From IMG/VR virus record IMGVR_UViG_3300044678_001935, positions 35,982-99,981 of that record: a stretch of 64,000 nucleotides of DNA; one strand, written 5' to 3'. Below are positions 35,957 to 61,710 of the stretch, piece after piece. Every line of letters starts with the position of its first letter. The stretch's first letter is position 1. The notes below the pieces were generated by a model. The model did no database searches. It worked only from the letters and a program-made list of their open reading frames with translations, and had not been told where the DNA came from. The stretch comes from a virus. Its lineage: Duplodnaviria; Heunggongvirae; Uroviricota; Caudoviricetes. The position numbers and the translations under genes were made by a program.

Positions 35957-36700
35957 ATGACCAATTACGTTTTTATCGGAGACGTTCACTCTCAATTCTC
36001 CAAATTTTCCGCAGCGGTGGATTGGATTCAAAATAATGTGAAAGATTATCACATTATTCAAGGTGGTGATCTCTTTGATTCTAGGTCAGAGGAATCTAAT
36101 TCTATGTTAGTTTATAATCTTGTTAAACTATTGGAGGATCGTATTACGGTTCTACATTCAAATCATCATATTAAACTCTATAAGATTCTAACACAAGAAA
36201 ATAATAACATGCAAAATCTGGAGAGTCTTCATAGGACTGTTATAGATTTTGATTTTGATAATAACAAAAGTCTGAAAGACGAGATCGTGAATTGGTTAGA
36301 AACCCTTCCTTACGGCGTCTCTTTTAAAGATCAGACGGGATTGGAATATAGGGCCTGCCATGCTTATTGGTTCAAAAAGCTTTATGTGCCGAATGAGTAT
36401 GAAGGACTTTATCCCATTCATGAAGTTTCAGCAAAAGCCAAGGGGCAGATGTTGTATGGAATTAGCCGAAAAGGAGAAGACGGTGGAAATGAAAGGATTT
36501 TGTGGTGGAGTAATATCAATAATTCTTATTGTGGAGAGAAAGAAGAATTTGTAAGAGTTTCTTTTCATTATCATACAGTATCTTTGGATATTGAAGGAAC
36601 TTCGGGACGAAAGCATCTGATTTTGGATGGATCTTGTGGTGACAAAGGTGGAGAATTGGTTGTCTATGATGTAAGCAATCATAGATGTGTCAGATTTTAA
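35957..36700 (+). CDS. calcineurin-like metallophosphoesterase
   Basis: Motifs FIGDVHSQ (GDxHG), GGDLFDSR (GDxxDRG) and LHSNHH (GNHE-like). The in-frame ATG at 35957 is preferred over the track start at 35924. Confidence 0.65.
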   Translation: MTNYVFIGDVHSQFSKFSAAVDWIQNNVKDYHIIQGGDLFDSRSEESNSMLVYNLVKLLEDRITVLHSNHHIKLYKILTQENNNMQNLESLHRTVIDFDFDNNKSLKDEIVNWLETLPYGVSFKDQTGLEYRACHAYWFKKLYVPNEYEGLYPIHEVSAKAKGQMLYGISRKGEDGGNERILWWSNINNSYCGEKEEFVRVSFHYHTVSLDIEGTSGRKHLILDGSCGDKGGELVVYDVSNHRCVRF

Positions 36701-45426: not shown

Positions 45427-45609
45427 ATGCACACCATAGAACTTTTTACTTTTAAAGACGCTATACATCTTTTTAACATAGAAATGCAGATTGTTCCCAT
45501 TGCTGGAGATTATATTAAGTATAATTACATCTTATACAAAGTTATTGAAAGAGGTTTTGAAGTTTTTCCGGCTACAACTATTCGTCTTTACGTAGAAGAA
45601 ACCAAATGA
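45427..45609 (+). CDS. small hypothetical protein
   Basis: In-frame ATG within track ORF 45391..45609, downstream of repeat copy B. Confidence 0.3.
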   Translation: MHTIELFTFKDAIHLFNIEMQIVPIAGDYIKYNYILYKVIERGFEVFPATTIRLYVEETK

Positions 45610-46223
45610 ATTACACCGAAGAACAAGTTAAAGAAATCGTCAGAAATGTCATTTCTGAGATGCAATCTGTAAATGTTAAGGATCTTACACTTTACCAAAA
45701 AAGGGGTGTTGCAAGAAATCCCAATACAGCACCAGAAGTCTTAGACCGTCTGGCTAATGATAAGGATTCTTATGTTCGTTGGCAGGTTGCAGAAAATCCC
45801 AACACACCACCAGAGACCTTAGAACGTCTGGCTAATGATGACGATTATTGTGTTCGTTGGAGTGTTGCATTTAATCCCAACACACCACCAGAAACATTAG
45901 CTCGTCTAGCTAATGATGTGGATTATTGTGTTCGTACGCCGGTTGCATTTAATCCCAACACACCACCAGAAGTTTTAGAACGTCTGGCTAATGATAACGA
46001 TTCTGTGGTTCGTTATTATGTTGCAAGAAATCCCAACACATTAACAGAAACTTTAGAACGTTTGGCTAATGATAAGAGTTCTTCTGTTCGTGAATGTGTT
46101 GTACAAAATCCTAACTACAAACGGAAATCCAACAATAAGATCACTATTGAGCTTACAGAAGAACAGTTGTCTCAATTACGAAAATGTGCAGACATGTTCT
46201 CTGGTCTTTTAGGATCTGTATAA
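45606..46223 (+). CDS. LRV/HEAT-like repeat protein
   Basis: 205 aa with six 26-aa repeats, a unique N-terminal 30 aa and a unique C-terminal 35 aa (no NYYE tail). Confidence 0.55.
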   Translation: MNYTEEQVKEIVRNVISEMQSVNVKDLTLYQKRGVARNPNTAPEVLDRLANDKDSYVRWQVAENPNTPPETLERLANDDDYCVRWSVAFNPNTPPETLARLANDVDYCVRTPVAFNPNTPPEVLERLANDNDSVVRYYVARNPNTLTETLERLANDKSSSVRECVVQNPNYKRKSNNKITIELTEEQLSQLRKCADMFSGLLGSV

Positions 46224-46250: not shown

Positions 46251-46505
46251 ATGGAAAAACTAAAATTCGTTGAAACCATTCTTGATCGGCTACAAGAATA
46301 TTCTATATCTCATCCACAACATGATACAGATGATGTGCTTAGCAAAGCACGAAAAGAACTTGAAAAACTTAATAAAAATTATGTTTTGATTGAAAACACT
46401 GAACATATTAAACTTTTGGACAATCAACGCACTCTTTATGCTCTTCATCGTGGTGGTGTTGATAATTGGGAATGGTATGACGAGTCTTTGAGCAGTTTGG
46501 ACTGA
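46251..46505 (+). CDS. hypothetical protein
   Basis: 84-aa ORF. Confidence 0.35.
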   Translation: MEKLKFVETILDRLQEYSISHPQHDTDDVLSKARKELEKLNKNYVLIENTEHIKLLDNQRTLYALHRGGVDNWEWYDESLSSLD

Positions 46506-46676
46506 CACTTTCAGAACCGTCCACAACCGCTTGACAATCCAGCCAATCCATGGTAGATTGAACAAGTTCAAAGATGAGGCAGCAATTCCTTTCTTCTGCA
46601 AATAGAAACAAAACTCATCTTGTATTAAGTTGATTCCGCATCAACAACAGCAAAAACATCAACTTGGAGATTAATT

Positions 46677-48140
46677 ATGACTTTTATGCAAGCTCTTTCT
46701 TCTGAAATGAACGTAACCACCACCGCTAATGGTGCCAAGGCTTACGAATCAACCGAAAATGAATGTCTTGATCTTTTCGGTTCAATTGGTGCCTGTCGCA
46801 ATAATATGTCTTTGGCTGAACGGTTGTTCTTTAATGCTTATAACCAACACCCAGAAACTGCCGCTAGAATTCTCTTCTACTCCCGCGATATTCGTGGAGC
46901 TAGTCAAGGTGAGCGAGCCGTATTTCGGGCTCTTATGCCGAAGTTCGCACAAAAGAATCCGACTGTTGCAAAAAAACTTGTTTCTTTGATTCCTTATTAT
47001 GGCCGATGGGATGATCTTCTATGTCTAGAAGGAACTCCTGTTTGGACAGAGGCTCTAGAAACTATTAAAGTTCAACTTAATGCAGATCTTAATAACAATA
47101 AGGTTTCTCTGGCAGCAAAATGGATGCCTAGTATCAATGCTTCAAGCAAAGAAAGCAAGCGTCTTGGTCGGATGATTGCGAATCATATGGGTTGGTCTGA
47201 ACGACAGTATCGTAAGAATCTTTCTACTCTTCGGGCGAAAATTAACATTGTTGAAACTCCGATGTGTGCCAAAGAGTGGGGACTTATCAATTATGAGAAT
47301 CTTCCTTCTCGTGCGGCGATGATGTACCGCAAAGCCTTTAAAAAGCACGATGAGACCCGATATAATAACTATCTCTCTAGTGTAGAGAAAGGTGAAGCGA
47401 AGATCAATGCTGGGACTCTGTTTCCTTATGATATTGTGAGCAAGTACCTCTACAAAGGTGCTCATAATGATAAAACTCTTGAGCTTCAATGGGATGCTCT
47501 TCCTAATTATATGGAAGGACTAGAGTTTAATGGTCTTGTTGTTGCAGACGTTTCAGGATCAATGACTTGCGCTGCTGGTATGCCATTGGCCGTTTCTATC
47601 TCACTTGCGATGTATATTGCCGAAAGAAATCCTTCAAGCGTTTGGAAAAATAAGTTCATCACTTTTTCTCAAAATCCAAAACTTCAATCTATTCTTGGTA
47701 ATAATATTGAAGAGAAAATTAGGTATCTCCAACGTGCTGAATGGGGAGTTAATACTGATCTAATGGCAGTATTCCGTACTGTTCTTGATGCTGCAACCAA
47801 TAATAATGTTGCACAATCAGATATGCCCCAGAAGCTAATTATCGTTTCCGATATGCAATTTGATAAGGCTTGTGCCTCAAATAAGCGAACTAATTTTGAG
47901 CAGATTCAGAAACTTTATCGTAAGGCTGGTTATGAAATGCCAGAACTCGTATTCTGGAATGTAAATGCTGGTGCAAATGTTCCAATTCAGGCCGATGATA
48001 ATGGAACCTGTCTTGTTTCGGGATGTAGTCCTGCTATTCTAAAGAGTGTTCTTAGTGGTAAAATCGTTTCTCCTATTGATGTTATGATGGAAAGTCTTTA
48101 TGTGGAACGATACGCTCCTATTGGTGAAGCGTTTGCATAA
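46677..48140 (+). CDS. von Willebrand factor A (vWA) domain protein (DUF2828-like architecture)
   Basis: MIDAS-type motif VVADVSGSM at the start of a C-terminal alpha/beta domain, after a long helical N-terminal region. Confidence 0.5.
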   Translation: MTFMQALSSEMNVTTTANGAKAYESTENECLDLFGSIGACRNNMSLAERLFFNAYNQHPETAARILFYSRDIRGASQGERAVFRALMPKFAQKNPTVAKKLVSLIPYYGRWDDLLCLEGTPVWTEALETIKVQLNADLNNNKVSLAAKWMPSINASSKESKRLGRMIANHMGWSERQYRKNLSTLRAKINIVETPMCAKEWGLINYENLPSRAAMMYRKAFKKHDETRYNNYLSSVEKGEAKINAGTLFPYDIVSKYLYKGAHNDKTLELQWDALPNYMEGLEFNGLVVADVSGSMTCAAGMPLAVSISLAMYIAERNPSSVWKNKFITFSQNPKLQSILGNNIEEKIRYLQRAEWGVNTDLMAVFRTVLDAATNNNVAQSDMPQKLIIVSDMQFDKACASNKRTNFEQIQKLYRKAGYEMPELVFWNVNAGANVPIQADDNGTCLVSGCSPAILKSVLSGKIVSPIDVMMESLYVERYAPIGEAFA

Positions 48141-48322: not shown

Positions 48323-48433
48323 TCAGATGATTCAGCAATTATCTCTTCGCTAGGAAAACAAAATCATCTAGTTAAACAATTTTATCAATTCTCAAAAAAT
48401 GTTCAATTTCGTTATTAATACTAAATAACCAAC

Positions 48434-48507
48434 AGCGGGCGAGTGTAACGGTAGTCACGTCGGGCTCATAACCCGGAGGAATATGGGTTCAATTCCCAGG
48501 TCCGCCA
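48434..48507 (+). tRNA. tRNA-Met (CAT), initiator-like
   Basis: Anticodon arm TCGGG-CTCATAA-CCCGG is the same as E. coli tRNA-fMet through its three G-C pairs. There is an A1·C72 mismatch at the acceptor end, T loop TTCAATT and acceptor 3' GTCCGCC. Confidence 0.55.
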
Positions 48508-48572
48508 TCAGATGATTCAGCAATTTCAAAACTTCTTATTGGTTAGAAAAACAAAAATCATCTAGTCTTATT

Positions 48573-50794: not shown

Positions 50795-51312
50795 CTGAAC
50801 AAGAGCAAAAACTATTAAACAAGTTTCTTTCCTCTATTGAAGAAGACGAAAAGTTCTTCAAAGAGATTATGAACCGAACAGATGAAGACGCAAGACTTCT
50901 TCAATGGATTGTCAATAATAATATCAATCCTTACGGTGTTTTTCCTTATTATATTGCTGGCAGTCTTTCCGAATTACAATCCTTTGTTGCCATCTACATT
51001 AAGATGACGTATCAAAGAAAGCACTGTGAAATTAATTACGTCAACGTTGAAAGAACAAGTAGCTCACATGATCATGTTGATAACCTAGGACCGAGAGTAG
51101 TTTTTGTTGGTAAATGGGAAGATGATTTTCATGCGCTAGTTAAAAAAGAATTAAATCTACCCGACGATGAGCTACCATGGGAATCATACACTTATGACTT
51201 TGACATCTTAGAAAACGTAGACGCCTTTATTGAAACATACAATAGGGTTGAAGATTATCACAAGAATCGTTATGAAGAAAACAGTAAGCTTGCGGATAGG
51301 TGGTTATCATGA
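50791..51312 (+). CDS. hypothetical protein
   Basis: 173-aa ORF whose stop TGA overlaps the lysS ATG (ATGA). Confidence 0.4.
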
Positions 51313-52787
51313 ATGAAGAAACATCACAATTTTTATCAGCCAGGTTGGATAAGATTTCAGAACTACAGAAAATAGGGCAAGTTGCATATGCTAATTCTTT
51401 TCACCCTACAATTAAAGCATTAGAATTACATAAGAATTATTTTAATCTGGAAAATGGTTCTGAATGTGATGATAATGTTGTTATAGCTGGTCGTATTATC
51501 GCAAGAAGAGTATTCGGTAAGTTGTCATTTTTTACTCTTTCCGATGACAGTGGAACAATTCAGCTTTATATTGAGAACGCCATCGTTGGTTCCGATATTG
51601 TTTCCTTAACCGATGTCGGCGACTGGATCGGCGCCACCGGCACCCTGCGGCGCACCGACCGGGGCGAGCTTTCGGTCAAGGTGCGCGACTGGACGATGCT
51701 CAGCAAGTCGCTTCAGCCCCTGCCCGACAAGTGGCATGGCCTGGCGGACGTGGAGAAGCGCTACCGGCAGCGCTATCTCGATCTGATCGTCTCCCCCCAC
51801 ACCCGCGAAACTTTCCGGCGACGTGCCATTTTGATTAGAACTATTCGCAATTGGCTTGACTCGCGGGAATTTTTGGAGATTGAAACTCCTATTCTACAAA
51901 CCGAAGTTGGCGGAGCCGAGGCCAAACCTTTCTCAACATATCATAACACTCTAGATCTATCATTAACTCTAAGAATTGCGACCGAGTTGCACCTTAAGAG
52001 GATGATTGTTGGTGGTTTTGAAAGAGTTTATGAGTTGGGTCGTATATTTCGTAATGAAGGTCTAAGCACCCGCCATAATCCAGAGTTTACAACCGTTGAG
52101 ATTTATCAGGCATATGCAGATTATAATGATATGATGATTTTAACAGAAAATCTCATATCTACTTGCGCAGAGACAGTTTGTGGTTCTACTGTAATAGTTT
52201 ATCAAGATGAAAAAATTGATCTAACTCCTCCTTGGAATAAATGTACAATGCACGAATTGGTTTTTGAGCATACTGGTCTTGATTTTCATCAATTTTCGTC
52301 AAGAACCGATGCCGCTAATGCTATGGAAACTATTGGATTGGTTGTTCCTGATAGTGCCGATTCCGTTGGTCGGTTATTAAACGAAGCCTTTGAACAAAGA
52401 GTTGAAAAACAGCTCATTCAACCGACTTTTGTTTTAGATTATCCTGTTGAAATTTCTCCACTGGCCCGTTCTCATAGAGAAAAACCGGAATTGGTTGAAA
52501 GATTTGAATTATTCATCTTTGGTCGTGAAATTGCCAATGCCTTTAGCGAACTCACCGATCCTTTAGAACAGAGAAAAAGATTAGAAGAACAACAAACCCG
52601 CCGCAATAATGGCGATCAAGAGGCTCACACTATTGATGAAGACTTTTTAAACGCACTTGAAATTGGAATGCCGCCAACCGGAGGACTAGGTATTGGTATA
52701 GACAGATTGACAATGTTACTTACGGATAGTCCGTCTATTCGTGATGTTATCGCTTTTCCTTTAATGCGCCCAGAGGACAAAACATGA
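51309..52787 (+). CDS. lysS: lysyl-tRNA synthetase (class II)
   Basis: N-terminal OB anticodon-binding region ([23 protein letters not shown]), motif 2 [23 protein letters not shown] and motif 3 [18 protein letters not shown] at 51309; the track lists a GTG at 51300. Confidence 0.85.
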
Positions 52788-53428: not shown

Positions 53429-53655
53429 TTATGAGAGCAACAGTTTATAAGGCAGTCTTGTGTATTGTTGATCATGAAGATATGCCAGAAGAATCCGTTA
53501 TTCATCTTTTAGAAAATGTTCGTTATCTTTATCCGAACATTATTAGTCTAGAATCACGAGAGATTGAAGAGTGGAATGATGAACATCCATTAAACAAAAA
53601 AGACACACATACTCAAGAATTTGGAAGATTATTCAATGGCATTCATTCAAAATAA
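53425..53655 (+). CDS. small hypothetical protein
   Basis: 76-aa ORF. Confidence 0.3.
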   Translation: MIMRATVYKAVLCIVDHEDMPEESVIHLLENVRYLYPNIISLESREIEEWNDEHPLNKKDTHTQEFGRLFNGIHSK

Positions 53656-54091
53656 AAACATTCTAACGCTTCATGATAACGAAATCTTCGTCTTTGGAAG
53701 CAACCGCGCTGGCATTCATGGAGCAGGAGCCGCTCTGCACGCCGCAAGATACTTTAAGGCTGTCCACGGGGTCGGTGAGGGCCTTACAGGGTTCTCCTAC
53801 GCACTACCAACAAAGCGAGCCAACTTTACCATCTGCTCTCTGGATGAGATTTCTTGGTCATTAAAATGTTTAAAAGAGTGTGCTAAAGAAAATCATATGT
53901 TCACTTTCTTCTTAACGAGAATCGGGCAGGGTTATGCAGGAATTCCAGAGAAAGATATTAAGAATCTGGTTATAAAAACCGATTTGCCTGATAATGTTCT
54001 TCCTTGGTGGATATGGGAGAATGCTTTTGGAACTTTCACAAAGGAAAATATTAACGTAAATTTGGATATTTTGGGTGTGACAGTTGATTAA
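53621..54091 (+). CDS. hypothetical protein, tentatively macro-domain-like (ADP-ribose binding)
   Basis: FVFGSNRAGIHGAGAALHAARY resembles the macro signature NAAN..LGGGGVDGAIHRAAG. It contains a GC-rich island at 53690-53840. The assignment is tentative. Confidence 0.3.
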   Translation: MEDYSMAFIQNKNILTLHDNEIFVFGSNRAGIHGAGAALHAARYFKAVHGVGEGLTGFSYALPTKRANFTICSLDEISWSLKCLKECAKENHMFTFFLTRIGQGYAGIPEKDIKNLVIKTDLPDNVLPWWIWENAFGTFTKENINVNLDILGVTVD

Positions 54092-55033: not shown

Positions 55034-55105
55034 CTGGAAATAAGTCAGTGGTAGACGGTCTAGTTTGGGGCTAGAAAGACGTTGGTTCGAGTCCAACTTT
55101 TCAGA
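55034..55105 (+). tRNA. tRNA-Pro (TGG)
   Basis: Acceptor CTGGAAA/TTTTCAG, D arm AGTC-AGTGGTA-GACG, anticodon arm TCTAG-TTTGGGG-CTAGA (U33, anticodon TGG, G37) and T arm GTTGG-TTCGAGT-CCAAC. Confidence 0.55.
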
Positions 55106-55175: not shown

Positions 55176-56234
55176 ATGAAAAAATACGATGCGGTGGTTT
55201 TCATCGGCAGGTTTCAACCTTTCCATAACGCTCATTTTGATATTATCAAAAAAGCTTATGAGCTAACTGATTATGTAATTCTTATCGCGGGTTCTCAGTA
55301 TCAACCACCTAGCTATAAGAATCCATTTCAGGCTTTAACTTTTGACGGTTATTTTGATTCAATTGGAAAAACCATTGATAATTATCTTAGAGTTAACTTT
55401 GAGGATTATTATGACGAAGACCGTAACTATGAGTTCTCGTTTTGTTTTCAACGAGATATTTACGGTGATAATCTCTGGTGCAAAAGTGTACAGGAAAAAG
55501 TATCAGAATTATTCTTAGGTCAAGAAGCTGAAATAGCCATTATTGGTTGTAATAAGGATGAAAGTTCTTATTACTTAAATATGTTCCCTCAGTGGGATCT
55601 TATTGAGGTTCCTCTGGATCAAAACCTTAGTGCTACACAGATCAGAGAACTTTATTTCGTTGAAGAACCAAATATGAGTTTTCTTCAAGGTGTTGTATCG
55701 TCTGAGGTTTTTAATTATCTTGACGAACACAAAAATACCGAATGGCACAATAATATCGTAAACGAACGAAATTTTATTGAAAAATACAAAGCCCAATATG
55801 CTTCTTTCCCATATCCACCAACATTCGTTACTGTAGATTCTGTAGTATTTCAATCCGGTCATGTTCTCGTTGTTCGGAGAAATGCTTATCCTGGTAAAGG
55901 TCTTATTGCTCTTCCTGGTGGATTCTTAGACGCTAATAGTGATGCCTCTTTGGAAGATGCTATGATTAGAGAACTGAGAGAGGAAACAGGGCTTAAAGTG
56001 CCAACTCCGGTTCTCAAGGGATCTATTAAAGATGTTAAAGTTTTTGATTCTCTTTATAGAAGCTCTCGTGGACGGACTATTACTCATGCTCATAACATTG
56101 TATTGTCTGATGGAGAACTACCTAGAGTCAAAGGTGATTCTGATGCTGATAAGGCTTTCTGGTTACCATTCAGCCAACTTAAATCAGAGCAATTTTTTGA
56201 AGACCATTATCAAATTATCAATTATTTTCTATGA
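55176..56234 (+). CDS. natV: bifunctional NMN adenylyltransferase / Nudix hydrolase (NadM-Nudix, NatV-like)
   Basis: N-terminal GRFQPFHNAH (the H/TxGH nucleotidyltransferase motif) and a C-terminal Nudix box GGFLDANSDASLEDAMIRELREETGL. Confidence 0.8.
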   Translation: MKKYDAVVFIGRFQPFHNAHFDIIKKAYELTDYVILIAGSQYQPPSYKNPFQALTFDGYFDSIGKTIDNYLRVNFEDYYDEDRNYEFSFCFQRDIYGDNLWCKSVQEKVSELFLGQEAEIAIIGCNKDESSYYLNMFPQWDLIEVPLDQNLSATQIRELYFVEEPNMSFLQGVVSSEVFNYLDEHKNTEWHNNIVNERNFIEKYKAQYASFPYPPTFVTVDSVVFQSGHVLVVRRNAYPGKGLIALPGGFLDANSDASLEDAMIRELREETGLKVPTPVLKGSIKDVKVFDSLYRSSRGRTITHAHNIVLSDGELPRVKGDSDADKAFWLPFSQLKSEQFFEDHYQIINYFL

Positions 56235-56431
56235 TTATGAATCAAGTGCAACTGAGTAAAATGTCAAGAGAAGAAAAACTTAAGGCATTGGCTTTAATTG
56301 ATAAAAACATTGAGACAACAAAACTTAAATTAAGCCAATTACATCATGAAGCCTATAAGTTGCAATATGAATTAGGTTATTACGCTAAAAAAGAAATCCT
56401 TTATGGAATTAAATATGATGTTCAAAATTAA
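56231..56431 (+). CDS. small hypothetical protein
   Basis: 66-aa ORF with ATGA overlap to natV. Confidence 0.3.
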   Translation: MIMNQVQLSKMSREEKLKALALIDKNIETTKLKLSQLHHEAYKLQYELGYYAKKEILYGIKYDVQN

Positions 56432-56951
56432 TAAAAATCGAAACTTCCTAGAAGACTATAAGAAATATTATTTCTTTTATGATACTCCATTGTCAAATTG
56501 GGCAGGTTATTCTTTTGTTGATACAACAACTGGAGTTTCTTACAATTGCTCAGAACAGTTTATGATGCACAAGAAGGCCCTACTTTTTTCTGATTATAAT
56601 ACTGCCGGCAAGATCATGAATAAAGAATACCCAGGAGATCAAAAAGCCTTGGGTAGAATGGTGGCAGGCTTTGATGTTAGCATTTGGAATGAATATGCAA
56701 GAGATCTTGTGTATGAAGGATGTTATTATAAGTTTACCCAAAATAAGGAAGCTTATGAATATCTTATGGGGACAGAAGGTTATCTTCTAGTAGAGGCATC
56801 ACCAACAGATACTATTTGGGGTATTGGACTTGGAGGTTATGATGCAGATAATCAAGATCCTAAAAATTGGAGAGGAACTAACTGGTTGGGTGAAGTTCTT
56901 ACACAACTACGAGAAGATTTGAAAGATAACCCAGAGTTAGTTTTATTCTAG
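56403..56951 (+). CDS. NADAR (DUF1768, YbiA-like) domain protein
   Basis: ..NCSEQFMMHKKALLF..KALGRMV..WNEYARDLVYEGCYYKFTQNKEAYEYLMGTEGYLLVEASPTDTIWGIGLGG matches the NADAR pattern (EH....K......LGR...W......M......KF.QN..L...LL.T...L.E.SP.D..WG.G). Confidence 0.65.
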   Translation: MELNMMFKINKNRNFLEDYKKYYFFYDTPLSNWAGYSFVDTTTGVSYNCSEQFMMHKKALLFSDYNTAGKIMNKEYPGDQKALGRMVAGFDVSIWNEYARDLVYEGCYYKFTQNKEAYEYLMGTEGYLLVEASPTDTIWGIGLGGYDADNQDPKNWRGTNWLGEVLTQLREDLKDNPELVLF

Positions 56952-57027
56952 TCAGATGTAAAGACTTTAAAACATAATTCAACGATAGACGTTGAATTTT
57001 ATCCACTATCATTTTAAGGAGTTTAAA

Positions 57028-59343
57028 ATGGACAACATTATTCTTTCTGCTGATTCTTACAAATACTCTCAGTTCAATCAATATCCTCCACAAACAGAGG
57101 GTGTTTATTCTTACATTGAGAGTCGCGGTGGTGGAGAAGAAGTTCTCTTTATGGGTCTTCAGATCTATCTTAAGGAATATCTATCTCGTCCCATTCGCAT
57201 GGAAGATATTGACGAAGCAGAGGAACTTATTCTCGCTCACGGAGAACCTTTTTATCGTGGCGGGTGGGAATACATCGTTAAGAAGCATGGTGGTTATCTA
57301 CCCGTAAGAGTAAAAGCCGTTCCAGAAGGAATGGTGATTCCAACGAAAAATGTTTTGGTTACGATTGAGAATACAGATCCAAACTGCTATTGGCTGACAA
57401 GTTTTCTAGAGACAAGTCTTCTTCGGCATGTTTGGTTTCCAACAACGGTTGCGACGAATTCTTATAACATCAAGAAGCTTATTTTGAGTTACTTGATTCG
57501 TAATGGAGATCCCAATACGATTGATTATAAGCTACATGACTTTGCATTTCGAGGTGTGTCTTCTTCTGAATCTGCCGGAATCGGTGGTATTGCACACCTT
57601 GTTAATTTCAAGGGAACTGATACAGTTGCCGCTCTTCGTTATGGTAGAAAATATTATAACGAAAAAATGGCAGGCTACTCGGTCCCAGCTTCAGAACATG
57701 GTGGAATCACGAGTTGGGGTAAAGAAAACGAAGTAGCGGCATATAGAAATATGCTTAATCATTATGCTAAGCCTGGTGCTATCGTCGCTTGTGTAAGTGA
57801 CAGTTATGACATTTATAACGCTTGCGATAAGCTCTGGGGTGAGGAGTTAAAGGATGAAGTTATTGCTTCTGGTGCTACTCTGACGGTCAGGCCGGATTGT
57901 TATGATGATCAAACTAAGATTTTAACTCCTAGTGGGTGGAAATTATTTTGTGAATTATCGGAAAACGATCTGGTTGCCCAGGTTAATCCCGATAAAACTT
58001 ATGAATTTGTCAAACCTCTTGAAATTATTAATGAATATTATGAAGGAGAAATGTATCAAATTCGGGATTTTCACGGAAAAATTGATCTCTTAGTCACTCC
58101 TAATCATAGATTAGTGGTTGTAGATAGAGCTGGTGAACTTATAGTAAAAGAAGCCAAAGATTATAACCCAAAAAATTTGAATTACCGAAAACTTCGTTCG
58201 GCTAAGGCCAAAACTTTTGGGAAAAATTTAACCTGGCACGAAAGACTATTAATCGCATTACAGGCTGATGGTACTATTAGAAAAACGACCTCCAATAAGA
58301 CGAGTATTGAATTCAATTTTCAAAAAGAGCGAAAGCATAATAGATTATTAAATATTCTTAATAATTTAAATTATGAGTATAGTGTCTTTTATAGTGAGTC
58401 TAGGGAGGGCCAATCAATTATAACCGTGTCAATACCATTGGGTGAAATTGTTTCTAAAACATTTGATTGGGTTGATATTTCAAACTTGGATAGTCAATGG
58501 TGTGAGCAATTTATAGATGAATTAAAACATTGGGATTCTTCTATTAGAAATAGTGGAAGATTTAAATATGATACTACAGTTAAATTTAACATAGACGTAG
58601 TAGAATATATTGCCATTTCTTCAGGGAAAGGGATTTTAATTTCCGTCGCCGAAGATAATAGACAATCTTATTATTCTGATGTTTATACTGCACATATATT
58701 GGATAATCCTTATTCTGGTGGTCAGACCATAACCAAAACAAAAGTTAATTATAAAGGAAGTGTACATTGTGTTAAAGTTCCGAGTGGTATGGTTTTAGTT
58801 AAAAGACACCGGGGAGTTTCTGTTTCTGGAAATTCTGGAGAACCTGTAGAAGTGAATCTTAAGTGTGCTCAAATTCTTGAAAGTCATTATGGATCTACCG
58901 TAAACTCTAAAGGATTTAAGGTACTCAATAACGTCAAGCTCATTCAGGGTGATGGTGTTAATTATGAAACTGTAGATCGGGTTCTTCATGTACTTGAATC
59001 TAACGGATATAGTAGTGATAACATTGGTTTCGGAATGGGTGGCGCCCTGCTCCAGGCTGTTACTCGTGATGATTACAAATTTGCCATGAAGTGTAGTGCG
59101 GTTAATGTGGCTGGAAATTGGAGGGATGTTTACAAGGATCCTATTACAGATCCAGGTAAAACATCTAAGAAAGGTCGTCTGAATCTGATTCATACCGATA
59201 ATGGTTACGAAACGGTTCCTGAACGCCCATGGAATAAAGATGTTCTTGAGGTTGTTTATGAGAATGGAGAACTTCTAAAGGATTATACTTTGGAAGAAAT
59301 CCGAGTGAACGCAAATCGGTGTATTCATAATTACTTCGCATAA
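57028..59343 (+). CDS. nadV: nicotinamide phosphoribosyltransferase NadV, interrupted by an intein
   Basis: N-terminus MDNIILSADSYKYSQFNQYPP is NAMPT-like and has a TAAGGAG RBS. The extein aligns with NAMPT on both sides of a 312-aa insertion between RPD and SGEP (human RPDSGNP), and NSKGFKVL..LIQGDGV matches NSKGYKLL..VIQGDGV. Confidence 0.8.
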   Translation: MDNIILSADSYKYSQFNQYPPQTEGVYSYIESRGGGEEVLFMGLQIYLKEYLSRPIRMEDIDEAEELILAHGEPFYRGGWEYIVKKHGGYLPVRVKAVPEGMVIPTKNVLVTIENTDPNCYWLTSFLETSLLRHVWFPTTVATNSYNIKKLILSYLIRNGDPNTIDYKLHDFAFRGVSSSESAGIGGIAHLVNFKGTDTVAALRYGRKYYNEKMAGYSVPASEHGGITSWGKENEVAAYRNMLNHYAKPGAIVACVSDSYDIYNACDKLWGEELKDEVIASGATLTVRPDCYDDQTKILTPSGWKLFCELSENDLVAQVNPDKTYEFVKPLEIINEYYEGEMYQIRDFHGKIDLLVTPNHRLVVVDRAGELIVKEAKDYNPKNLNYRKLRSAKAKTFGKNLTWHERLLIALQADGTIRKTTSNKTSIEFNFQKERKHNRLLNILNNLNYEYSVFYSESREGQSIITVSIPLGEIVSKTFDWVDISNLDSQWCEQFIDELKHWDSSIRNSGRFKYDTTVKFNIDVVEYIAISSGKGILISVAEDNRQSYYSDVYTAHILDNPYSGGQTITKTKVNYKGSVHCVKVPSGMVLVKRHRGVSVSGNSGEPVEVNLKCAQILESHYGSTVNSKGFKVLNNVKLIQGDGVNYETVDRVLHVLESNGYSSDNIGFGMGGALLQAVTRDDYKFAMKCSAVNVAGNWRDVYKDPITDPGKTSKKGRLNLIHTDNGYETVPERPWNKDVLEVVYENGELLKDYTLEEIRVNANRCIHNYFA
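57898..58833 (+). mobile_element. intein (312 aa) with a LAGLIDADG-like motif, in-frame within nadV
   Basis: Begins with Cys (CYDDQTKILTPSGW) and has block B LVTPNHRL. The LAGLIDADG-like motif is LLIALQADGTIRK. It ends ..VSVSGN followed by an extein Ser, and it sits in the conserved PRPP-binding RPDSG site. Confidence 0.65.
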
Positions 59344-59428: not shown

Positions 59429-59905
59429 ATGAAACGTCCTCAGGTAAAAACCTCTACGTTTAAGGAAATTCGTCCAATCACAAAATTGGATGATATTCCA
59501 CGTATAAAGCAATTTAATTTTTTTCATAAAAAAGGAGTAAAATGTGTTAAATGTGGTTGTGAGGGAAAGTTTATTGTTAAAGATAACCTTAATAGACGCA
59601 AAATTTGTACAGAAAATTACATTAGTTTGAGTAGGGATCATATTATTCCAATCTCTAAAGGTGGGTCCAACGTAATAAAAAATATGCAGACGATGTGTGA
59701 ATATTGTAATGGTTTAAAGGGTACCATGAATAATGAGATTTTTATGTCTATACCAAATTTCTTTTTAGACGATGCTTTTAAATGTGACCGGAGCAAAAGT
59801 TTTAAAGTGTTTATTCTTCTATTAAGAGTTATGGCAAAATTTTATAGGACTAAAACCAGGATTTACTCAAGAATGAAAAATCTGCACTCACAAACTCTAA
59901 CCTAA
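59429..59905 (+). CDS. HNH endonuclease (free-standing)
   Basis: CVKCGCEG..C..RDHIIPISKGGSNVIKNMQTMCEYCNGLKG carries the HNH core with its flanking Cys pairs. Confidence 0.7.
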   Translation: MKRPQVKTSTFKEIRPITKLDDIPRIKQFNFFHKKGVKCVKCGCEGKFIVKDNLNRRKICTENYISLSRDHIIPISKGGSNVIKNMQTMCEYCNGLKGTMNNEIFMSIPNFFLDDAFKCDRSKSFKVFILLLRVMAKFYRTKTRIYSRMKNLHSQTLT

Positions 59906-60360: not shown

Positions 60361-61710
60361 ATGTCATTGTTTCTAACAGATACTCTAACAAAAGAAAAAA
60401 GGGAATTCGTTCCACTAGAAAATAACACTGTCAACATATACTCCTGTGGTGTGACCGTTTATGATCTAACACACTTTGGTCATGCTCGCAGTTTTATAGT
60501 TTGGGATGTTCTTCGTAGACACCTAAAATGGCTTGGATATGCTGTTAAATTTGTTCAGAACTATACCGATATTGATGATAAAATTATTGCAAAAGCCAAT
60601 GAACAGAATCAAACAATCAAAGAAATAACAGAAAAGTACATTAACGAGTATGAGAAAGATATGACCTTTCTTAATGTTATGTTGCCGGATAAGATGCCTA
60701 GAGCCACAGATCATTTATCCGAAATTCGCAGTATGATTAAAACTCTAGAATCTAAAGGTGCTGCATATACTTTAGATGGTAGTGTTTATTTTTCTGTTAA
60801 TACTCATGAGAATTATGGTAGATTATCTGGAAGAATTTTAGACAATCAAAAAGATAACTCAGGTGAATTTCTTAAAAAGAATTCTTTTGATTTCGCATTA
60901 TGGAAAGCTTCTAAACCAGGTGAACCGAGTTATTCTTCTTATTGGGGAAATGGTAGACCGGGATGGCATATAGAATGTTCGGCGATGATCTGGAAGGAAT
61001 TTGGAAAGACTATTGATATCCATCTTGGGGGTTCTGATCTGATTTTTCCACATCATGAGAATGAAATAGCCCAAACTGAAGTTGCAACAGAAAATCAATT
61101 ATCTCGTTGGTGGTTACATTCTGGAATGGTAATGGTTGATGGTAAAAAAATGAGCAAGTCTCTAGGAAACTTTACAACCATTCGGTCCTTACAAGAATCA
61201 GGATTTAGTCCAATGGCCATAAGGCTTTTCGTATTACAGGGGCATTATCGCAAACCTCTTGATTTTACGGAAAATGCTTTAAAAATGGCAACGAATTCCT
61301 GGAATAAATTAAATGAAGTTTTGTTGTTAAAATCTTCAAAAGAAACTACCGAAATTGATTTTGATGATAAGCTAAGATCTTATCACAATAATTTTATAGA
61401 TGCTCTTAACGACGATCTCAATACTTCTCTTGCAATCTCAGTTCTTTTTGTTTTGGTTAAAGAAATAAGAGTGAATAACTCAGACTCTTATATTTTACTT
61501 TTGTGCGAATTATCAGCAATTCTTGGTCTTTTTGGAGAGCAAAAGTCCAATATAAGCGAATCAGAAATTTTAGAACAAATTGAATTAAGAAATTCAGCAA
61601 GAAAAGAAAAGAATTTTACTCTTGCGGATGAGATCAGAGAAAAATTATTAACTTCTGGTGTTAAACTTGAAGATACAAAAGACGGAACTAGTTTTAATTT
61701 TATTGTGTGA
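60361..61710 (+). CDS. cysS: cysteinyl-tRNA synthetase (class I)
   Basis: HIGH-type motif THFGHARS, zinc ligands CGVTVYD and WHIECSAM, the KMSKS motif GKKMSKSLGNF, and overall collinearity with bacterial CysRS (NYTDIDDKII, PRATDHL, FPHHENEIAQ). Confidence 0.85.
   Translation: MSLFLTDTLTKEKREFVPLENNTVNIYSCGVTVYDLTHFGHARSFIVWDVLRRHLKWLGYAVKFVQNYTDIDDKIIAKANEQNQTIKEITEKYINEYEKDMTFLNVMLPDKMPRATDHLSEIRSMIKTLESKGAAYTLDGSVYFSVNTHENYGRLSGRILDNQKDNSGEFLKKNSFDFALWKASKPGEPSYSSYWGNGRPGWHIECSAMIWKEFGKTIDIHLGGSDLIFPHHENEIAQTEVATENQLSRWWLHSGMVMVDGKKMSKSLGNFTTIRSLQESGFSPMAIRLFVLQGHYRKPLDFTENALKMATNSWNKLNEVLLLKSSKETTEIDFDDKLRSYHNNFIDALNDDLNTSLAISVLFVLVKEIRVNNSDSYILLLCELSAILGLFGEQKSNISESEILEQIELRNSARKEKNFTLADEIREKLLTSGVKLEDTKDGTSFNFIV

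Follow-up and report, generated by a model that had tools for sequence, protein, structure and literature searches.

A GC-rich island in a cyanophage macrodomain gene, plausibly an old conversion tract

A macrodomain gene of an uncultured virus, which we assign to the cyanomyoviruses, carries a GC-rich island of ~150 nt that we interpret, with moderate confidence, as an older, partly decayed conversion tract derived from a GC-richer homologue by ordinary homology-guided recombination. The gene (53636..54091, + strand, 151 aa, A1S_2505 family, predicted to be TARG1/DarG-like) lies in the window, by which we mean the whole 64-kb stretch of DNA that was analyzed (positions 35,982 to 99,981 of IMG/VR record IMGVR_UViG_3300044678_001935), and the island covers 53687..53839 on the + strand, that is, codons 18–68, with edges that are approximate to within ±10 nt. 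The anomaly lies at synonymous sites, is specific to one clade of phages and is not an artefact, and an event of the same kind with a known donor is found 2 kb upstream in lysS, the gene for a class II lysyl-tRNA synthetase (LysRS). A preliminary description of this DNA had proposed repeated patch-wise acquisition from a high-GC source for both genes; this is proven for lysS, whereas for the macrodomain island, the donor of which was not found in the searches given below, it is plausible.

Composition of the island

The sequence that the preliminary description quoted was found at its noted position in an open reading frame (ORF) that encodes ...FVFGSNRAGIHGAGAALHAARYF..., and the GC peak there was confirmed. 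The island has a GC content of 0.562 against a mean of 0.363 for the window; in 100-nt windows over 53650–53849 the values are 0.48, 0.61 and 0.53, and in the flanks 0.30–0.38. In a scan of the whole window, GC peaks at 53703 (0.62, z 4.65), which is rank 2 in the 64 kb, and the sole stronger peak is the lysS island at 51546–51878 (0.72, z 6.5). GC is hence not uniform on recalculation, and the GC content at third codon positions (GC3) is raised in the island as well. A small GC peak elsewhere in the window, at 48421–48532, is explained by a tRNA-Met gene. As previously noted, the island lies over the conserved core of the protein (FVFGSN...HGAGAA...YALPTK): its codons correspond precisely to the N-terminal half of the domain, from the first beta-strand through the Gly-rich ADP-ribose loop (HGAGAA) and helix 1 to the strand with the invariant Lys60 (YALPTK).

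About half of the GC excess of the island is amino-acid content (Gly/Ala/Arg) and about half is synonymous codon choice. When every codon of 53687–53839 was redrawn from the phage's own codon usage with the protein sequence held fixed (20,000 simulations), the expected GC was 0.448 ± 0.021 (z 5.35 for the observed value) and the expected GC3 was 0.244 ± 0.059 against an observed 0.549 (z 5.16). None of the 20,000 simulations attained the observed GC and GC3, and in the same simulation both flanks inside the macrodomain gene are normal (z 0.9 and 0.0). In a scan for GC3 excess over 83 ORFs (16,180 windows of 40 codons), the island is rank 2 with z 4.99; lysS is rank 1 with z 9.8, and the third-ranked real gene has z ~3.9. 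One ORF on the minus strand, 46290–46601, also had a high GC3 z-score, which we discarded as a wrong-strand artefact, as a more plausible plus-strand ORF lies opposite. The z-scores of the scan are overdispersed (standard deviation 1.27), and after correction for this and for the whole window, with ~400 independent windows assumed, the GC3 excess of the island has a P value of only ~0.02. Hence, the case for the macrodomain island rests also on comparative evidence.

The excess is mainly in C at third codon positions (C3, 0.43 versus 0.16 expected), with little in G (G3, 0.12 versus 0.09 expected). The log-likelihood ratio (LLR) of host over phage codon usage is −0.26 bits per codon for the island and −1.65 ± 0.40 for phage genes, so that the codon usage of the island is intermediate between phage and host and not host-like.

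Comparison across the clade and the family

Macrodomain homologues at 72–96% amino-acid identity were found in contigs from 11 samples that were produced by three pipelines (Logan, ENA/SPAdes and JGI). All of these close homologues, on contigs L001–L010 and L179, have kept an in-frame GC3-rich patch (GC3 0.45–0.59) on backgrounds of 29–36% GC. Since the window and all of its relatives come from metagenome assemblies, a chimeric assembly that joined a fragment of a GC-rich organism into the phage gene has to be considered. However, the island is in frame in every sample and pipeline, with ordinary divergence among samples, and L179, an independent 94.9-kb contig, matches the window at every one of the 5,479 nt compared, including the lysS patch, and has the same macrodomain island values. 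Furthermore, the identity of the flanks to any GC-rich homologue is too low to bridge a de Bruijn graph. The probability of an assembly artefact, which the preliminary description had left room for, is in our view negligible.

More distant relatives carry the same core without the patch. The homologues in L011–L014, which are 62% identical and have the C-terminal backbone LTRIGQGYAG...PWW in common with the window gene, encode the same core motif (FVFGSN.AGIHGAGAA...GEGL.G..YALPTK) at a core GC3 of 0.20–0.25, and the amino-acid sequence therefore does not force the GC3 of the island. Across the wider family, for which loci were taken from collections of genome, viral and metagenome sequences, the core–rest contrast in GC3 has a mean of −0.003 (standard deviation 0.086) in 229 other distinct genes. 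In the window gene it is +0.21 and in the clade +0.14 to +0.28, and only 2 of the 229 others reach the value of the window gene. With a mean contrast of approximately zero, the family has no general leaning to GC-rich core codons, and the island characterizes this lineage. Core GC3 tracks the GC of the surrounding genome across the family (r 0.84), and the C3 of 0.28–0.40 and G3 of 0.14–0.19 in the islands of the clade are like those of family members from genomes of ~42–50% GC.

It could be argued that amino-acid composition plus chance is sufficient, with a Gly/Ala/Arg-rich motif and a synonymous excess that is a statistical tail. The GC expected from the protein alone is indeed well above that of the window (0.448 versus 0.363), the corrected P value is modest, and another segment, 47304–47456, has a comparable host/phage codon score. 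We nevertheless regard this as improbable, given that no simulation reached the observed GC, that the excess is present in every clade member despite 22–64% synonymous turnover, and that so few family genes have a core–rest contrast this large.

Synonymous sites have diverged to the same degree within the island as in the rest of the gene (for example 0.31 versus 0.30, or 0.64 versus 0.51 to the L008 subclade), and a reduced synonymous rate in the island, as from constraint or a recent sweep, was not seen in the clade comparison. This indicates that the patch was part of the gene before the clade began to diversify and has been passed on with it, and that it is under no extra constraint at the nucleotide level. 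Judged from these comparisons, the age of the macrodomain patch matches that of its clade, whose members go down to 72% amino-acid identity, and the patch is not a recent event. The same data bear on the import of the whole macrodomain gene from a GC-rich source, with the conserved core lagging in amelioration, to which the GC3 of the rest of the gene would lend some support if its difference from expectation (0.33–0.35 versus 0.29–0.30) were significant, which it is not. Synonymous sites decay independently of protein conservation, and with equal synonymous divergence inside and outside the island no GC3 contrast is expected from such an import; moreover, the backbone of the gene is closest (58–62%) to AT-rich relatives that have AT-rich cores. 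This makes whole-gene import very unlikely.

An embedded nucleic-acid element or overlapping gene, such as a structured RNA, a protein-binding site or the +1-frame ORF at 53673–53864, seems hardly credible. The ORF has 63 codons and lies exactly over the island, but the predicted RNA fold is no more stable than that of shuffled sequences (z +0.84), covariation contributes only −0.58 kcal/mol (compensatory changes in 3 of 35 predicted pairs), the island has no Rfam match and no repeats, and its synonymous rates are not lowered. We rejected the +1-frame ORF as spurious, as it has a stop in the L008 subclade and non-conservative changes, and is open only through the GC richness of the island.

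A more serious contender, although still an unlikely one, is a locally maintained codon bias, in which GC3 would be held near 0.5 by selection for C-ending, host-adapted codons (translational accuracy, with a host of ~70% GC) or by GC-biased gene conversion among co-infecting relatives. The concentration of the excess in C3 fits this explanation, as does the position of the island over the most conserved and catalytically important residues. GC3 is also 0.45–0.59 in both subclades, that of the window and that of L008, despite near-saturated synonymous sites (0.64 differ) and uncorrelated G/C positions, and a clear excess of substitutions from G/C to A/T (S>W) is not seen. However, the 229 other family genes have no excess of core over rest, and L011–L014 encode the same residues at low GC3. 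In this phage itself, other conserved catalytic motifs, among them LysRS motifs 2 and 3, CysRS and NADAR, use codons as is normal for the phage, and the Gly and Ala codons of the island are mixed (GGA, GCT and GCA are common) and not the host-optimal GGC and GCC. The C bias does not discriminate, because family members have more C3 than G3 in the core whatever the GC level of their genome.

The lysS tract as positive control

The lysS gene (51309..52787, + strand; NCBIfam PRK00484, E 4e-207) has its best homologues, in a full-length search, among Synechococcus/Cyanobium LysRS (70–72%), and outside the patch its GC3 is 0.21–0.28, as expected for the phage. We assign it as a host-derived auxiliary gene, the backbone of which has by now reached the AT-rich codon usage of the phage. 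The GC-rich island that the preliminary description had placed in the same context exists, and contains a conversion tract at 51609..51817 (+ strand) that is identical in 206 of 209 nt (98.6%) to the chromosomal lysS of L177, a Cyanobium-like contig of 70.5% GC, with perfect runs at 51617–51712 (96 nt) and 51714–51811 (98 nt). Compared codon by codon, ~51609–51790 has 97–100% nucleotide identity to L177, third positions included, and the flanks have 55–65% (15–35% at third positions). The GC3 of the tract reaches 0.95, its codon LLR is +1.66 bits per codon in favor of host over phage, and it sits in the most conserved stretch of LysRS. The protein cluster of the L177 LysRS includes an NCBI entry named ‘MAG: Cyanobium sp.’. 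The tract is a very recent host-to-phage gene conversion and, as its donor is identified, it establishes that host-to-phage patch conversion operates in this genome.

The ends of the patch vary among related phages. LysRS variants (P0482–P0487) that are 95–99% identical to that of the window differ from it near both patch ends, where the window and the host have GATG...SPHT and other phage LysRS variants have GASG and/or SPNT. These differences suggest conversion tracts of differing extent in near-identical phages. A further phage LysRS (P0207) is 76% identical, and a protein search with the lysS island only returned fragments only.

Origin of the macrodomain island

Patchy GC content in the cyanophage genes psbA and psbD has been ascribed to intragenic recombination between host and phage and between phages (Zeidner et al. 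2005; Sullivan et al. 2006, PMC1484495). The setting is alike here, with an AT-rich cyanomyovirus, a GC-rich picocyanobacterial host and discrete GC-rich segments that are clearest at third codon positions, and the lysS tract is a textbook case with an identified donor. The genes differ in being non-photosynthetic (an aminoacyl-tRNA synthetase, and a macrodomain gene without a known host copy), and the macrodomain patch differs further in being old, clade-wide and only intermediate in composition. As in the psbA-type patches, the synonymous-site composition of the island departs from that of the flanks and the genome. A partner that is far closer to the patch than to the flanks was found for the lysS tract (98.6% versus ~60%) and not for the macrodomain island.

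We propose that, in an ancestor of the cyanomyovirus clade, ~150 nt of a homologous macrodomain gene replaced the AT-rich version of the phage. The donor would have been GC-richer, at least ~45–50% GC, and may have been a co-infecting phage, a prophage or the host. The exchange would have occurred by ordinary homology-guided recombination (gene conversion) and started in the most conserved part of the gene, because only there do diverged homologues keep enough nucleotide identity. The patch would then have been inherited vertically, drifting partway back to phage codon usage. By analogy with the lysS tract, the same origin for the macrodomain patch is plausible, as is this GC level of its donor.

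The preliminary description had also raised a specific recombination mechanism, which finds no support: neither island has flanking direct or inverted repeats, the two have no repeats or junction motifs in common, and at the macrodomain island there is no RNA structure, no Rfam family and no associated recombinase, endonuclease or mobile-element gene. Compared with homologues, the replacement keeps both the reading frame and the length. Ordinary homology-guided recombination within the best-conserved part of a gene, as proposed for psbA and psbD, would be sufficient.

Several observations weigh against an old conversion tract. The first is that a donor was not found among the matches listed for genome, viral and metagenome contigs, among 1.84 billion protein representatives or among cultured phages. 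Scans of the contigs with the island peptide gave at least 240 loci, and among the matches listed none from outside the clade is more than 67% identical to the island at the nucleotide level. At the protein level nothing outside the clade exceeds ~76–80% identity over the island, and an island-only HMMER search of the 1.84 billion representatives found nothing nearer than ~76%. An exact 23-mer of the island had no match in viral contigs, and a degenerate DNA pattern for GIHGAGAALHAA had no match. The family member most similar over the island, P0019, was rejected as donor, as it has 42% GC and is only 61% nucleotide-identical. No cyanophage homologue of the macrodomain gene was found among cultured phages, in which the protein matches are mainly to N4-like and other phages of Pseudomonas, roseobacters and Rhodobacter, and there was no match to the region at the DNA level. 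In IMG/VR, no relative of the lysS or macrodomain gene of the window was found.

The second group of observations concerns the decay and the history of the patch. Polarized substitutions (13 S>W versus 10 in the opposite direction, W>S) give no clear decay from GC to AT in what is a weak and noisy test, and the G/C third positions of the window and L008 subclades are essentially uncorrelated, in a comparison without power; as a consequence, a single old event, two separate events and a maintained bias are not distinguishable by these positions. Some distant family members have 79–80% identity over 43–46 island residues, compared with 67–76% for the backbone relatives, and ~30% over the rest of the gene, compared with 56–62%. 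However, the core is short and near-uniformly conserved, at 70–80% identity across the whole family, and phylogenetic incongruence between the island and the rest of the gene is hinted at but not demonstrable. Finally, 47304–47456 is equally intermediate in codon score, which makes the anomaly of the island a moderate one that is not unique in the window. This segment lies in a DUF2828/DUF7788 gene (46677–48140), has a host/phage codon score of −0.15 bits per codon and a GC3 excess of z 3.2, and may be another old patch.

A variant that we consider rather improbable is that the island is a persistently renewed exchange site, at which co-infecting phages or host-borne homologues would time and again exchange the N-terminal half of the macrodomain, with its ADP-ribose loop and the strand that bears the catalytic Lys. 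If so, the window and L008 subclades would hold independent imports, with GC3 near 0.5 despite saturated synonymous turnover. The half of a counter-defence enzyme that binds the substrate would in that case be shuffled as a module, under the pressure of an arms race with ADP-ribosylating defences or through GC-biased conversion.

The macrodomain gene and its neighbours

The designation of the gene as ‘macro-like’ was correct. In the profile search that had been suggested as a check of the fold, the protein has no match in Pfam, with the Pfam Macro family not reached at E ≤ 0.01, but it matches NCBIfam NF049995 (A1S_2505 family phage non-structural protein, N-terminal domain) over residues 17–122 with 105.4 bits against a cut-off of 45 (E 1.8e-30), as well as PHROG 2072. 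A profile of 51 homologues searched against PDB sequences recovers OARD1/TARG1 at E 0.0055. The AlphaFold2 model made with these homologues is confident, with a predicted local distance difference test (pLDDT) score of 90.3, and structure comparison of the model recognizes the three-layer alpha/beta/alpha macrodomain fold with a mixed central sheet, with TARG1 as the top Foldseek match. Alignment to TARG1 with hhalign gives a probability of 89% and E 2.2e-6 over 88 columns, and the C-terminal half of the TARG1 sequence used agrees with the PDB profile alignment.

In these alignments, Lys60 (YALPTK), which is invariant in the 51 homologues, corresponds to the catalytic Lys84 of TARG1 (YLITK), which lies on the strand after the second loop and has an equivalent in DarG, and the Gly-rich HGAGAA aligns with MGAGIA of TARG1. 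The acidic partner Asp125 of TARG1 (G-x-G-L-D loop) is replaced by the family-invariant Ala101 (G-x-G-[LY]-A-G). From the alignments and the model, we class the protein as a TARG1/DarG-like macrodomain that retains the lysine and is without the aspartate. Its likeness to TARG1/OARD1 and to DarG, the DarTG2 antitoxin, is distant: it is only 14–19% identical to DarG/TARG1 and has no DarT-binding C-terminal domain. GenBank names for members of the A1S_2505 family vary and include ‘ADP-ribosyltransferase’ and ‘N4 gp14-like’, which are unverified.

Directly 3′ of the macrodomain gene lies a cluster of an NMNAT-Nudix gene (55176–56234), a NADAR gene (56403–56951) and an NAMPT gene (56992–59343), which is kept in the window, L003, L008 and L009. 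NAMPT and NMNAT make up the phage NAD+ reconstitution pathway NARP2 (bioRxiv 10.1101/2024.02.11.579819), and phage NADARs (AdfN) are orphan antitoxins against DarT ADP-ribosylation (PMC11825919), a role that is also given to DarG-like phage proteins in two further reports (PMC11481870, PMC13309987). Like these DarG-like and AdfN erasers, the macrodomain gene is stand-alone and phage-borne, and it lies near NADAR and NAD+ salvage genes. The cluster at 55176–59343 and the macrodomain gene suggest a counter-defence island, composed of a NARP2-like NAD+ salvage set and two genes of the ADP-ribose-eraser type. Given the fold, the retained catalytic lysine and the gene neighbourhood, the macrodomain gene product is probably an ADP-ribose-removing counter-defence enzyme.

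Two further observations were made at the NAMPT gene. It has a 312-aa in-frame insertion (57898–58833) that begins with Cys and ends with Asn followed by Ser, which are intein-like junctions, and the NAMPT orthologue in L003 (4521–5900) is without the insertion and 94% identical elsewhere. A free-standing HNH endonuclease gene (59429–59905) follows the NAMPT gene.

Implications

Events of this kind are already known in cyanophages, and the macrodomain island alone adds little that is new mechanistically. New are the genes involved, and the lysS tract is an unusually clean example with an identified donor. Together, the two patches extend short-tract host–phage or phage–phage conversion in cyanophages beyond photosynthesis genes, to a translation gene and to what is probably a counter-defence gene. 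Such patches can mislead single-gene phylogenies and host predictions that are made from auxiliary genes. Conversely, recent patches such as that in lysS provide a direct nucleotide-level link from an uncultured phage to its host genus, here Cyanobium-type picocyanobacteria. The macrodomain gene, clustered with NADAR and NAMPT/NMNAT, may encode an eraser of ADP-ribose that counters DarT-type and other ADP-ribosylating defences.

Other features of the window

The structural genes in the window are those of a myovirus. Among cultured phages, Synechococcus phages B3 and B23 (MN695334/5) come closest, with a tail protein that is 53.6% identical; these are 244-kb freshwater myoviruses of 34.8% GC that infect the Synechococcus–Cyanobium complex (PMC7171214). 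The relationship is only distant, with no match to B3 or B23 at the DNA level in the macrodomain region and no macrodomain homologue among the cultured-phage matches. On sequence grounds, we assign the window to a freshwater cyanomyovirus, with a Cyanobium-type picocyanobacterium of ~70% GC as its predicted host.

Besides lysS, the window has a second aminoacyl-tRNA synthetase gene, cysS (60361–61710; class I Cys-tRNA synthetase, Pfam E 5e-122), which has phage-like AT-rich codons and no GC patch. Two tRNA genes were found, tRNA-Met(CAT) at 48434–48507 and tRNA-Pro(TGG) at 55034–55105. The ORF at 45606–46223 encodes tandem ‘...NPNTPPETLERLAND...VR..VA.’ units that resemble LRV repeat families, to which genes elsewhere in related contigs have faint matches.
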